A stretch of 55,200 nt of DNA, taken from the IMG/VR virus record IMGVR_UViG_2923302340_000007; one strand, given 5' to 3'. Each line of letters opens with the position of its first letter. Position 1 is the first letter of the stretch. Below are positions 36,201 to 48,200 of the stretch, in pieces. The stretch comes from a virus. Taxonomy: Duplodnaviria; Heunggongvirae; Uroviricota; Caudoviricetes. The position numbers are program-made.

Positions 36201-39200
36201 TGGGACGTCCGTCGATGGCAGAAGATCGCAGCACGGTAACAGCGGCAACCGGCATGACCGTGACGCCTGCCAGCACCTCGGTGGTGAAAGGGCAGAGCAC
36301 CACGCTGACCGTGGCCTTCCAGCCGGAGGGCGTAACCGACAAGAGCTTTCGTGCGGTGTCTGCGGATAAAACAAAAGCCACCGTGTCGGTCAGTGGTATG
36401 ACCATCACCGTGAACGGCGTTGCTGCAGGTAAGGTCAACATTCCGGTTGTATCCGGTAATGGTGAACTTGCTGCGGTTGCAGAAATCACTGTCACTGACA
36501 GTTAATCCGGAGAGTCAGCGATGTTCCTGAAAACCGAATCATTTGAACATAACGGCGTGACCGTCACGCTTTCTGAACTGTCAGCCCTGCAGCGTATTGA
36601 GCATCTCGCCCTGATGAAACGGCAGGCAGAACAGGCGGAGTCAGACAGCAACCGGAAGTTTACTGTGGAAGACGCCATCAGAACCGGCGCGTTTCTGGTG
36701 GCGATGTCCCTGTGGCATAACCATCCGCAGAAGACGCAGATGCCGTCCATGAATGAAGCCGTTAAACAGATTGAGCAGGAAGTGCTTACCACCTGGCCCA
36801 CAGAGGCAATTTCTCATGCTGAAAACGTGGTGTACCGGCTGTCTGGTATGTATGAGTTTGTTGTGAATAATGCCCCTGAACAGACAGAGGACGCCGGGCC
36901 TGCAGAGCCTGTTTCTGCGGGAAAGTGTTCGACGGTGAGCTGAGTTTTGCCCTGAAACTGGCGCGCGAGATGGGGCGACCCGACTGGCGTGCCATGCTTG
37001 CCGGGATGTCATCCACGGAGTATGCCGACTGGCACCGCTTTTACAGTACCCATTATTTTCATGATGTTCTGCTGGATATGCACTTTTCCGGGCTGACGTA
37101 CATCGTGCTCAGCCTGTTTTTCAGCGATCCGGATATGCATCCGCTGGATTTCAGTCTGCTGAACCGGCGCGAGGCTGACGAAGAGCCTGAAGATGATGTG
37201 CTGATGCAGAAAGCGACAGGGCTTGCCGGAGGTGTCCGCTTTGGCCCGGACGGGAATGAAGTTATCCCCGTTTCCCCGGATGTGGCGGACATGACGGAGG
37301 ATGACGTAATGCTGATGACAGTATCAGAAGGGATCGCAGGAGGAATCCGGTATGGCTGAACCGGTAGGCGATCTGGTCGTTGATTTAAGTCTGGATGCGG
37401 CCAGATTTGACGAGCAGATGGCCAGAGTCAGGCGTCATTTTTCCGGTACGGAAAGTGATGCGAAAAAAACAGCGGCAGTCGTTGAACAGTCGCTGAGCCG
37501 ACAGGCACTGGCTGCACAGAAAGCGGGGATTTCCGTCGGGCAGTATAAAGCTGCCATGCGTATGCTGCCTGCGCAGTTCACCGACGTGGCCACGCAGCTT
37601 GCAGGCGGGCAAAGTCCGTGGCTGATCCTGCTGCAACAGGGTGGTCAGGTGAAGGACTCCTTCGGCGGGATGATCCCCATGTTCAGGGGCTTGCCGGTGC
37701 GATCACCCTGCCGATGGTCGGGGCCACCTCGCTGGCGGTGGCGACCGGTGCGCTGGCGTATGCCTGGTATCAGGGCAACTCAACCCTGTCCGATTTCAAC
37801 AAAACGCTGGTCCTTTCCGGCAATCAGTCGGGTCTGACGGCAGATCGTATGCTGGTCCTGTCCAGAGCCGGGCAGGCGGCAGGGCTGACGTTTAACCAGA
37901 CCAGCGAGTCACTCAGCGCACTGGTTAAGGCGGGGTAAGCGGTGAGGCTCAGATTGCGTCCATCAGCCAGAGTGTGGCGCGTTTCTCCTCTGCATCCGGC
38001 GTGGAGGTGGACAAGGTCGCTGAAGCCTTCGGGAAGTTGACCACAGACCCGACGTCGGGGCTGACGGCGATGGCACGCCAGTTCCATAACGTGACGGCGG
38101 AGCAGATTGCGTATGTTGCTCAGTTGCAGCGTTCCGGCGATGAAGCCGGGGCATTGCAGGCGGCGAACGAGGCCGCAACGAAAGGGTTTGATGACCAGAC
38201 CCGCCGCCTGAAAGAGAACATGGGCACGCTGGAGACCTGGGCAGACAGGACTGCGCGGGCATTCAAATCCATGTGGGATGCGGTGCTGGATATTGGTCGT
38301 CCTGATACCGCGCAGGAGATGCTGATTAAGGCAGAGGCTGCGTTTAAGAAAGCAGACGACATCTGGAATCTGCGCAAGGATGATTATTTTGTTAACGATG
38401 AAGCGCGGGCGCGTTACTGGGATGATCGTGAAAAGGCCCGTCTTGCGCTTGAAGCCGCCCGAAAGAAGGCTGAGCAGCAGACTCAACAGGACAAAAATGC
38501 GCAGCAGCAGAGCGATACTGAAGCGTCACGGCTGAAATATACCGAAGAGGCGCAGAAGGCTTACGAACGCCTGCAGACGCCGCTGGAGAAATATACCGCC
38601 CGTCAGGAAGAACTGAACAAGGCACTGAAAGACGGGAAAATCCTGCAGGCAGATTACAACACGCTGATGGCGGCGGCGAAAAAGGATTATGAAGCGACGC
38701 TGAAAAAGCCGAAACAGTCCGGCGTGAAGGTGTCTGCGGGCGATCGTCAGGAAGACAGTGCTCATGCTGCCCTGCTGACGCTTCAGGCAGAACTCCGGAC
38801 GCTGGAGAAGCATGCCGGAGCAAATGAGAAAATCAGCCAGCAGCGCCGGGATTTGTGGAAGTCGGAGAGTCAGTTCGCGGTACTGGAGGAGGCGGCGCAA
38901 CGTCGCCAGCTGTCTGCACAGGAGAAATCCCTGCTGGCGCATAAAGATGAGACGCTGGAGTACAAACGCCAGCTGGCTGCACTTGGCGACAAGGTTACGT
39001 ATCAGGAGCGCCTGAACGCGCTGGCGCAGCAGGCGGATAAATTCGCACAGCAGCAACGGGCAAAACGGGCCGCCATTGATGCGAAAAGCCGGGGGCTGAC
39101 TGACCGGCAGGCAGAACGGGAAGCCACGGAACAGCGCCTGAAGGAACAGTATGGCGATAATCCGCTGGCGCTGAATAACGTCATGTCAGAGCAGAAAAAG

Positions 39201-45200: not shown

Positions 45201-48200
45201 TCCGGCATTTTCCCTGACACCGGACGGGCGGCTGACGGCGAAAAATGCCGATATCAGCGGTAACGTGAATGCGAACTCCGGGACGCTCAACAACGTCACG
45301 ATTAACGAGAACTGCCGGGTTCTGGGAAAACTGTCCGCGAACCAGATTGAAGGCGATCTCGTTAAAACAGTGGGCAAAGCTTTCCCCCGGGACTCCCGTG
45401 CACCGGAACGGTGGCCATCAGGGACCATTACCGTCAGGATTTATGACGATCAGCCGTTTGACCGGCAGATTGTTATTCCGGCGGTGGCATTCAGCGGCGC
45501 TAAACATGAGAGAGAGCATACTGATATTTACTCCTCATGCCGTCTGATAGTGCGGAAAAACGGTGCTGAAATTTATAACCGTACCGCGCTGGATAATACG
45601 CTGATTTACAGTGGCGTTATTGATATGCCTGCCGGTCACGGTCACATGACGCTGGAGTTTTCGGTGTCAGCATGGCTGGTAAATGACTGGTATCCCACAG
45701 CAAGTATCAGCGATTTGCTGGTTGTGGTGATGAAGAAAGCCACCGCAGGCATCAGTATCAGCTGAATTTTATAACCCCAATACGGGCGTCAGAAATGACG
45801 CCTTTTTTATTGCAGAAAAGCGAGAGGTAATTATGCGTAAATTATGTGCTGTTATTCTGTCCGCAGTAGTCTGGCTGGTTGCCGCTGGTACGCCAGCGAG
45901 CGCAGCAGAGCATCAGTCCACACTAAGCGCCGGGTATCTTCAGACCCATACTGATATGCCAGGCAGTGATGACCTGAAGGGCATTAACGTGAAATACCGT
46001 TATGAATTTACGGACACGCTGGGGCTGGTGACGTCATTCAGTTATGCCAATGCCAAAGATGAGCAAAAAACGCATTACAGCGATACCCGCTGGCATGAAG
46101 ATTCCGTGCGTAACCGCTGGTTCAGCATGATGGCGGGGCCATCTGTACGCGTGAATGAATGGTTCAGTGCTTATGCGATGGCGGGTATGGCTTACAGCCG
46201 TGTGTCGACCTTCTCCGGGGATTATCTCCGCGTAACTGACAACAAGGGGAAAACGCACGATGTGCTGACCGGAAGTGATGACGGTCGCCACAGCAACACG
46301 TCTCTGACGTGGGGGGCTGGCGTGCAGTTTAACCCGACCGAATCCGTGGCCATTGACCTTGCTTATGAAGGTTCCGGCAGTGGTGACTGGCGCACTGACG
46401 GTTTCATCGTGGGTGTCGGTTATAAATTCTGATTAGCCAGGTAACACAGTGTTATGACAGCCCGCCGGTTCAGGCGGGCTTTTTTGTGCACAGAAAACCC
46501 CCAGCTAGGCTGGGGGTTCCGGAAAGCTTTCAGCTTTGAGCCAGTTATTAAAACCCCTTTTGATTTGTTAAAACACCTTGCGGTCTGGCAACTGCAAGTG
46601 TCAAACAAGAAATCAAAAGGGGGTCCCAATGGGGAACGAAAAGAGCTTAGCGCACACCCGATGGAACTGTAAATATCACATAGTTTTTGCGCCAAAATAC
46701 CGAAGACAGGTGTTCTACAGAGAGAAGCGTAGAGCAATAGGCAGTATTTTGAGAAAGCTGTGTGAGTGGAAAAGCGTACGGATTCTGGAAGCTGAATGCT
46801 GTGCAGATCATATCCATATGCTTGTGGAGATCCCGCCCAAAATGAGCGTATCCGGGTTTATGGGATATCTGAAAGGGAAAAGCAGTCTGATGCTTTACGA
46901 GCAGTTTGGTGATTTGAAATTCAAATACAGGAACAGGGAGTTCTGGTGCAGAGGGTACTACGTCGATACAGTGGGTAAGAACACGGCGAAGATACAGGAT
47001 TACATAAAGCACCAGCTTGAAGAGGATAAAATGGGAGAGCAGTTATCGATTCCCTATCCGGGCAGCCCGTTTACAGGCCGTAAGTAACGAAGTTGGATGC
47101 AAATGTCAGATCGTGTGCGCCTGTTAGGGCGCGGCTGGTAAGAGAGCCTTATAGGCGCATTTGAAAAACCTCCGGCTATGCCGGAGGATATTTATTGTGG
47201 AGTGGATATGGCAGCAGTAAAAATCTCAGGTGTGCTGAAAGATGGTGCGGGAAAACCAATACAGAACTGCACTATTCAACTGAAGGCAAAGCGTAACAGC
47301 ACCACGGTACTGGTGAACACGGTGGCCTCTGAAAATCCGGATGAAGCCGGGCGTTACAGCATGGATGTTGAGTATGGCCAGTACAGCGTTATCCTGCTTG
47401 TTGAAGGTTTTCCGCCTTTACATGCCGGAACCATTACCGTCTATGAAGGTTCCAGACCAGGTACGCTGAATGATTTTCTCGGTGCCATGACGGAAGATGA
47501 TGTCATGCCGGAGGCATTGCGTCGTTTTGAGGAAATGGTGGAAGAAGCGGCACGCAACGCTGAAGCCGCCTCTCAGAGCGCAGCGGCGGCAAAGAAATCC
47601 GAAACTGCAGCGGCATCATCGAAGAACGCGGCGAAAACCTCAGAAACGAATGCAGCTAACAGCGCACAGGCGGCAGCGGCCTCGCAGACTGCATCGGCAA
47701 ATTCCGCGACAGCAGCCAAAAAATCAGAAACCAATGCGAAAAACAGCGAGACAGCCGCAAAGACGAGCGAAACCAACGCAAAGTCCAGCCAGACGGCAGC
47801 GAAAACCAGCGAAACGAATGCCAAAGCCAGTGAAACTGCGGCGAAAAACAGCCAGGATGCAGCGGCCCAAAGCGAGAGTGCCGCAGCTGGTTCTGCAAGT
47901 GCGGCGGCTTCTTCTGCCACTGCATCAGCCAACAGTCAAAAAGCTGCAAAAACCAGCGAAACCAACGCAAAGTCCAGCCAGACGGCAGCGAAAACCAGCG
48001 AAACGAATGCCAAAGCCAGTGAAACTGCGGCGAAAAGCAGTCAGGATGCAGCAGCCGAAAGCGAGAGTGCTGCAGCTGGCTCTGCAAGCGCGGCGGCTGC
48101 TTCTGCCACTGCATCAGCCAACAGTCAAAAAGCTGCAAAAACCAGTGAAACCAACGCAAAGGCGAGCGAGACTGCGGCGGCTAACTCGGCGAAAGCATCC

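Follow-up and report, generated by a model that had tools for sequence, protein, structure and literature searches.

Tail-gene frameshifts of a lambdoid Escherichia coli prophage as probable consensus errors from mixed prophage copies

The 16 frameshifts that break five tail genes of this cdt-I-carrying E. coli prophage, analysed in a window of 55,200 nucleotides (the whole stretch of DNA examined), are most probably consensus errors derived from mixed prophage copies and not bacterial mutations, a reading which we strongly infer and to which we assign a probability of about 0.88. The source E. coli would carry at least two lambdoid prophages with similar but non-identical tail modules, and during assembly, polishing or gap closure the reads or PCR products of both copies would have been stacked on one locus. 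At single-base differences between the copies, both bases would have entered the consensus as a +1 insertion or neither as a 1-bp deletion. Locally the two haplotypes would be interwoven base by base, and two runs of five G would have been undercalled to four. The error-making step was presumably long-read consensus building, polishing or the sequencing of a mixed PCR product. The significance lies in data quality rather than in biology.

Number and distribution of the frameshifts

The module is lambda-like, being collinear in the order T-H-M-L-K-I-J-lom and highly identical to phages of the lambda family. As an 8.5-kb query, positions 37300-45800 display 95-96% identity over 93-100% of the length to intact prophages, phage 21 and PhiR46_1, while lambda itself (NC_001416) matches the window at 93-96% identity from H to mid-J. 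The order H-M-L-K-I-J is shared with lambda, phage 21 and PhiR46_1 and the repaired window genes are equally full-length, but as deposited five of the six are out of frame, with H, M, L, K and J split into pieces.

Base-level alignment with the intact prophage L001 places 18 indels at 37690-43779. As two of these, a loss of 7 bp at 39478 and a gain of 1 bp at 39494, combine to an in-frame change of 6 bp, 16 frameshifting events remain relative to intact relatives, 11 insertions and 5 deletions, an excess of insertions that on its own is not significant (P = 0.1). All 16 fall within 6,090 bp, with P ~4e-7 when judged against 19.5 kb of comparable late region and P ~5e-13 against the 48 kb of the window outside insertion sequences; no frameshifting indel occurs in the other late-region DNA alignable with L001. 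Upon tblastn with the proteins of intact relatives, more than 50 other window genes were found in a single frame and mostly at full length, with gene C as the exception, and the IS2-cut gene and the tail fibre gene yielded partial alignments only. Nu1, A, W, B, D, E, FI, FII, Z, U, V, G, T, I and Lom are full-length in one frame according to both the ORF list and tblastn. Such a sharp 6.1-kb cluster would be explained by mixed copies if these were either identical or too divergent to cross-map in gene I, at the end of J and in the head genes, leaving a clean consensus there.

A preceding sequence-only reading had described about a dozen clustered frameshifts in H, M, L, K and J, several at short G or T runs, next to pristine head genes. 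The disrupted frames are borne out by the ORF list, by tblastn and by the L001 alignment, and the clustering is upheld by the probabilities given above, while the number of shifts rises from a dozen to 16. The two G runs that had been named, at 37690 and 37932, are indeed contracted from five G in the relatives to four in the window, but they represent the sole true homopolymer contractions; runs account for a minority of the events, with a few further ones altering a run of one or two bases and the majority being insertions in a non-repetitive context. Among the head genes Nu1, A, W, D, E, FI and FII are uninterrupted as proposed, but C is cut by two ISCro1 copies.

Within 25875-31848 these ISCro1 copies, identical and inverted members of the IS66 family, flank an inverted fragment of C (28575-29148); their disruption of C genuinely inactivates the prophage and is no part of the artefact. 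Both 2.7-kb copies share 100% identity and have intact ORFs, so that, as a point against the consensus-error reading, poor polishing of repeats is not a general feature of the window. A second insertion sequence, IS2, interrupts an early gene and carries an A3-to-A4 change.

Lesions of the individual genes and the doubling of alleles

The number of pieces per gene was derived from the ORF list and from tblastn of the intact relatives' proteins against the window; all tail genes lie on the plus strand. Gene H (37352-39906), encoding the tape measure protein, is divided into four frames or pieces (37352-37696, 37675-37935, 37932-39725 and 39727-39903) by the two G5-to-G4 contractions and a +1 insertion at 39725. 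From 37352 to 39450 it is 99.3% identical to the intact H of FORC_069 and other strains, with a difference in length solely due to the two absent G. Gene M (39903-40235) possesses four +1 insertions, at 40058, 40074, 40137 and 40191, besides a further local pair of one base lost and one gained at around 40080-40086. Two alleles are interleaved at 40074 (GCG or GCA in relatives, GCGA in the window), at 40137 and at 40191 (ATG-C or ATG-T, ATGCT in the window).

Genes L (40236-40935) and K (40940-41685) are in two pieces each. In L, a +2 insertion at 40462 marks a switch from an L001-like to an L003-like haplotype with two bases of each retained (AC+GC), followed by a 1-bp deletion at 40476 where an A/C variable base is absent; in K, the +1 insertions at 40952 and 41019 turn ACA/ACT into ACAT and a G/A variable site into GA. 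Gene J (42285-45765), which determines the tail tip and host specificity, is affected by +1 insertions at 42782, 42946 and 43779 and by 1-bp deletions at 43270 and 43589, five frameshifts that result in about 5-6 pieces and are reflected by five tblastn segments in three frames, with the C-terminal 2 kb clean. All three J insertions place alleles in tandem (A/G to AG at 42782 and 42946, G/A to GA at 43779), and the base deleted at 43589 has three alleles among relatives.

Gene I (41622-42224) is intact and located in a 1.76-kb indel-free stretch inside the affected zone. It reads in a single frame with 98% identity to the L001 protein (tblastn), and positions 41200-42400 show 0 mismatches to the best panel relative. 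The exact I protein is present in 17 other contigs; loci with the identical protein (L003-L012) are panel members and represent HK97-type-head prophages of different strains, such that their consideration as sister strains was rejected.

Cumulatively, the majority of insertions coincide precisely with a position that is variable among relatives, with both variants adjacent, as in CTC-A-G-GTGG where relatives have either A or G. By a strict test with 15-mers, both the version lacking the first base and the version lacking the second base are present among intact relatives for 5 of the 11 single-base insertions, compared with 3-4% of simulated random insertions. If one mismatch per flank is tolerated, 7 of 11 pass against a simulated null of 10-12% (P ~1e-4); the remaining 4 fail this formal test with a panel of relatives that is small and mosaic, and by eye the insertions at 40074, 40952 and 40137 display the pattern, too. 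Two of the deletions (43589 and 40476) take out variable bases, and site-by-site alignments show haplotypes that interleave down to the scale of single bases. Indels at sites where alleles differ, with both bases or neither kept, are what a consensus of mixed paralogs would produce. The signature of both alleles in tandem is a useful read-free diagnostic by which consensus errors from mixed paralogs can be spotted in poly-lysogenic genomes.

Coding signal and absence of the indels from relatives

Upon removal of the indels H, M, L, K and J regain full length, and no internal stop codon is found in H, L, K and J. Differences to L001 are biased towards synonymous changes (38 versus 13 in H, 24 versus 6 in L and 95 versus 41 in J). 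Substitutions private to the window, as tallied by BLAST projection of the panel relatives onto it, number at most 25, with 20 in the third and 0 in the second codon position.

These observations bear on genuine pseudogenisation, whereby the tail genes would have decayed after the prophage had been immobilised by the cut in C or because a second lambdoid prophage had made them redundant. Lambdoid prophages in poly-lysogenic E. coli are often decayed, this one is genuinely defective through the ISCro1 and IS2 insertions, which makes real decay of tail genes plausible beforehand, and both G5-to-G4 changes are located at sites prone to real slippage. However, at a natural ratio of 5-10 substitutions to 1 indel, 80-160 substitutions would be expected (P < 1e-12 for 25 or fewer), and after repair the 7.8 kb display neither a nonsense codon nor the substitution load and relaxed constraint of a natural pseudogene. 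Neutral decay should also strike head and tail genes equally, with all released genes hit and deletions at least as frequent as insertions, as bacterial mutation bias favours deletions, yet all events are confined to 6.1 kb and insertions prevail. Duplication of both alleles at variable sites is foreign to decay as well, and we know of no mutational process that would cause it.

The cryptic prophages Rac, Qin and DLP12 of K-12 and the defective prophages of O157 Sakai provide a comparison, as they have in common with the window a lambda-like late operon, a poly-lysogenic E. coli host and real IS insertions. Real cryptic prophages accumulate large deletions, IS insertions, nonsense codons and a substitution load, whereas the tail genes of the window show merely indels of 1-2 bp over constrained sequence.

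The indels are likewise absent from related genomes. In a k-mer test of window against repaired alleles, 0 of 18 window indel alleles were found in any of the 23 intact relatives, while the repaired forms of 17 are present in 2-20 relatives; at 39478, the repaired 7-bp site matches only the relative that served as its template. When three sub-segments were searched against the 5,426 complete E. coli genomes of RefSeq, no match had the identity expected for shared indels (for 39400-41100 the best match among 12,447 homologous places was 97.0%), and one 45-mer spanning two frameshifts had no exact match in the viral or the species-representative collection. The only recurring change, the G5-to-G4 contraction at 37690, was seen solely in unrelated assemblies which are themselves indel-rich: in a 4-kb comparison with phage 21 one shows 5 indels and 5 substitutions, and for a second one alignment to intact relatives across 5.7 kb opens 16-27 gaps. 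Pseudogenisation is accordingly judged unlikely, and the suggestion of the sequence-only reading that a module redundant in a poly-lysogen had decayed finds no support in the coding signal, the relatives or the RefSeq searches.

Acquisition of the 6-kb tract from an older, decayed prophage through recombination or gene conversion, which we consider highly improbable, would account for the sharp boundaries of the cluster. A high degree of mosaicism is typical of lambdoid tail modules, the relative with the best match shifts every few hundred bases along the whole late region, and the L003-like patch at 40462-40500 shows that alleles have really been exchanged. A decayed donor should nevertheless bring random substitutions and stop codons, of which none are seen; a donor-like allele was found neither in the relatives nor in the RefSeq and 45-base searches just described, and the insertions of both alleles are left unexplained. 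In a sliding comparison, bins with indels have on average ~2.8 mismatches to the closest panel relative and clean bins ~0.8. The sliding best-match was rejected as proof of abnormal chimerism, as it is non-discriminating in a late region that is naturally mosaic and with a small panel.

Source of the errors and consequences

The alternative raised along with decay, namely that the consensus is erroneous because near-identical tail genes occur in several prophages, is favoured by the tandem alleles, the dropped variable bases, the G5-to-G4 changes and the evidence for a second lambdoid prophage. Two accessions of the same 5,071,057-bp chromosome, AVS45289 and AVS47557, record the terminase A protein of the window, so the source genome contains a second lambdoid prophage; a second tail module, of a sequence that permits cross-mapping, would be expected to accompany it. 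Exact-protein look-ups with the H fragment and capsid protein E matched no indexed contig, and one with the terminase led to other strains alone.

Generic low quality of the sequence, from low-coverage long-read or single-pass data and with no mixing of paralogs, has very little probability, even though a pattern of indels only, dominated by insertions and with G5-to-G4 undercalls, resembles raw PacBio-type error and the A3-to-A4 change extends to the IS2 copy. Random errors would neither favour variable sites with the alternative allele inserted (P ~1e-4 to 3e-5) nor interleave two natural haplotypes. Methylation-motif errors of Nanopore sequencing were dropped as CCWGG and GATC are absent from the indel contexts, and programmed frameshifting was rejected with 16 sites in five genes that lack slippery motifs and are read through in the intact relatives examined.

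In polished long-read bacterial assemblies, residual and introduced errors gather in genomic repeats (Wick and Holt, 2022; PMC8812927). The window resembles the repeat errors addressed by Polypolish in that errors are of the indel type and would be concentrated in repeated sequence with unique sequence clean, and in the occurrence of homopolymer-length errors and apparent false pseudogenes. In contrast to those, most errors in the window lie outside homopolymers, as paralog variants that were doubled or dropped. This is indicative of a mixture of two diverged copies, with an identity of roughly 95-98%, rather than of exact repeats left unpolished.

The indels might still be real if recombination between two diverged prophage tail modules in one cell had formed a heteroduplex subject to faulty mismatch processing that left both bases in tandem or none, a scenario we regard as very doubtful. 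If true, many single bases would have been gained and lost in one event, precisely where the paralogs vary, by a novel mutational process.

With respect to annotation, mixed-copy consensus errors would mean that five tail genes of the cdt-I-carrying prophage have been wrongly scored as pseudogenes and its decay overstated, with the prophage still defective via the IS insertions in C. The frameshifted fragments have now entered protein databases, where the 161-residue H fragment heads a cluster of similar artefacts from other assemblies.

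Gene content and reading frames

Nearly the whole 55.2-kb window is a lambdoid prophage of E. coli. The integrase lies at its left end and the lambda-type late operon extends from Nu1 to J; downstream of it come Lom, a side tail fibre gene and then cdtABC, the genes for a type I cytolethal distending toxin, with the chromosomal gene zinT at the right edge. Exact-sequence look-ups place the window proteins on a single 5,071,057-bp GenBank chromosome (AVS47557-AVS47575, locus tags IY32_); among 5,426 complete RefSeq E. coli genomes, a set without the source genome, the H-J region is matched at 96.4% at best. 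The genes cdtA, cdtB and cdtC (51379-53476) are located just inside the right end adjoining zinT (54553-55200), and their products are 100% identical to the counterparts of strain TUM14697. By homology with strain JP538, tRNA genes (Ile, Arg) are probably located at about 17870-18120, between DNA methyltransferase and TerB-like genes.

As the sequence-only reading had reported, the tail genes H, M, L, K and J (37352-45765) are each broken across several frames, which the ORF list and tblastn with the proteins of intact relatives confirm. By tblastn, Nu1, A, W, B, D, E, FI, FII, Z, U, V, G, T, I and Lom each occupy one frame at full length. The same holds for zinT, cdtABC, three small genes of the tail fibre-cdt intergenic region and, out of 30 early-region genes compared, 29, the exception being interrupted by IS2; for the side tail fibre gene the alignment, with a divergent homologue, is partial. 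The description of the head genes as pristine stands for most of them, but not for gene C, whose interruption by two ISCro1 copies had been missed.

Base-level alignment with the intact ETEC1721 prophage (L001) identifies 18 indels between 37690 and 43779, and no frameshifting indel in the other 13 kb of alignable late region, where the sole indel is a 12-bp insertion at the C-D junction. A 7-bp deletion at 39478 and a +1 at 39494 combine to an in-frame 6-bp change, at a spot also variable in length among relatives, so that 16 frameshifting events remain. This clustering is beyond chance (P about 4e-7 to 5e-13), and the two G runs previously singled out as shift sites (37686-37689 and 37932-37935) are real, being G4 in the window and G5 in relatives.

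Private indels and tandem alleles

Three results, the privacy of the indels, the selected-looking sequence and the excess of insertions, speak against natural indels. None of the window alleles of the 18 indels was found in a panel of 23 intact relatives, while the alleles with the indel undone occur in 2-20 relatives each at 17 of the 18 sites, the repaired 7-bp site (39478) matching only L001, the source of the restored bases. Across RefSeq E. coli, the densest indel stretch, 39400-41100, finds 12,447 homologous places with a top identity of 97.0%; 37352-39450 shows 99.3% identity to many intact H genes, with two missing G as the only length difference. The indels are thus private to the window's assembly.

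Once the indels are taken out, H, L, K and J contain no internal stop, and synonymous differences from L001 outnumber others (38 versus 13 in H, 24 versus 6 in L, 95 versus 41 in J). Only 25 substitutions occur in no relative, 20 of them at third codon positions. Judged by this coding pattern, the sequence beneath the indels still looks selected. In E. coli mutation-accumulation work spontaneous substitutions are several-fold commoner than indels, so that 80-160 random substitutions would be expected alongside 16 real indels; the probability of observing 25 or fewer is below 1e-12. Insertions outnumber deletions by 11 to 5, the reverse of the usual bacterial bias, although this excess by itself is not significant.

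Site-by-site alignment shows that most insertions fall exactly on sites variable among relatives, with the window carrying both alleles in succession. At 42782, relatives possess CTC-G-GTGG or CTC-A-GTGG and the window CTC-AG-GTGG; at 42946, GT-G-CAGG or GT-A-CAGG is represented by GT-AG-CAGG, at 40191 ATG-C-TGCG or ATG-T-TGCG by ATG-CT-TGCG, and at 43779 GT-G-AAC or GT-A-AAC by GT-GA-AAC. The sites 39494, 40074, 40952 and 41019 behave likewise, at 40137 and 40074-40091 the sequence alternates from one base to the next between two natural haplotypes, and 40462 is a haplotype switch point retaining two bases of each. In the deletions at 43589 and 40476 the lost base is exactly a variable one. 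Variable positions within the panel make up about 11% of the indel zone. When both versions of an insertion with one base deleted were required among intact relatives, 5 of 11 insertions passed the strict test versus 3-4% of simulated random insertions, and 7 of 11 versus 10-12% with one mismatch per flank allowed (P about 1e-4).

Origin of the indel cluster

No mutational or recombinational process is known to us that would leave the two alleles side by side, while a consensus from two mixed templates yields exactly this: aligners of noisy reads often split a mismatch into an insertion and a deletion, and at the double peaks of mixed Sanger traces either two bases or no base is called. The indel cluster is most probably not biological, and the frameshifts can be attributed, with a probability of about 0.88, to a consensus blending two similar prophage copies of one genome. 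Consensus error among similar prophages had been one of two interpretations offered by the sequence-only reading, and is favoured by the double-allele signature, the private indels and the intact coding signal.

The terminase large subunit A (22098-24023) is recorded under two protein accessions on the same chromosome, AVS45289.1 and AVS47557.1, which indicates at least one further lambdoid prophage with an identical A protein. Reads would cross-map and conflict solely where the two copies are similar but not identical, and the consensus would stay clean where they are clearly different or identical (possibly terminase, gene I, 41020-42780); such cross-mapping may explain why a stretch of 6 kb is affected. 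This step agrees with benchmarks in which polished bacterial assemblies show their residual and introduced errors clustered in genomic repeats (PMC8812927). The window's own repeats cut both ways, with a private A3-to-A4 change in IS2 versus a flawless ISCro1 pair.

Among the alternatives, plain low-quality sequence without paralog mixing is a partial explanation, as it accounts for indel-only errors but leaves their coincidence with variable sites unexplained. A real, novel process creating indels at heteroduplex mismatches is very improbable. A decayed tract imported by recombination would account for the sharp edges, but fails on the same substitution argument as decay in place and on the lack of a donor among the 23 intact relatives and in RefSeq searches of three sub-segments. 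Real decay of the tail genes, the other interpretation offered earlier, is contradicted, since the indels cluster, the expected substitution load is missing, repaired H, L, K and J lack nonsense codons, and the insertions bear the double-allele signature.

Homopolymer shifts, IS elements and head alleles

The G5-to-G4 change at 37690 creates a 161-residue H fragment (37352-37837), which heads a 16-member database cluster with members from other E. coli assemblies showing the same G5-run shift. The DNA of five cluster assemblies (L020-L024) is itself indel-rich; over 4 kb, one same-shift assembly is separated from phage 21 by 5 indels and 5 substitutions, and aligning 5.7 kb of another with intact relatives takes 16-27 gap openings. 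The likeliest reading of the 37690 shift is that the G5 run is repeatedly undercalled, rather than that an allele circulates, and the cluster illustrates how sequencing artefacts can seed a protein 'family'.

Independently of the tail genes, the prophage is genuinely defective, as protease/scaffold gene C is cut by the ISCro1 (IS66 family) pair; portal gene B is intact. The two copies (25875-28574 and 29149-31848) form inverted arms of 2,700 nt without a single difference, each with intact ORFs of 225, 115 and 523 residues. The 574 bp of C that they enclose (28575-29148) are inverted, an arrangement suggestive of an IS-mediated inversion or intramolecular transposition. The IS2 copy is inserted in a DUF977-family early gene (about 9995-11325) and shows 99.1-99.3% identity to the top RefSeq matches listed. 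Its insD transposase frame is broken by the A3-to-A4 change at 10634, absent from the aligned APEC E123 IS2. This may be a truly defective IS2 or a further consensus error within a repeat.

The 12-bp insertion at the C-D junction (ACCTGAAGCTTT, 32529-32540) is private to the window. The adjacent D and E alleles (32560-33973) carry about 65 private substitutions versus the panel, in E mostly at third codon positions, a bias that identifies them as a naturally divergent head allele, as opposed to error.
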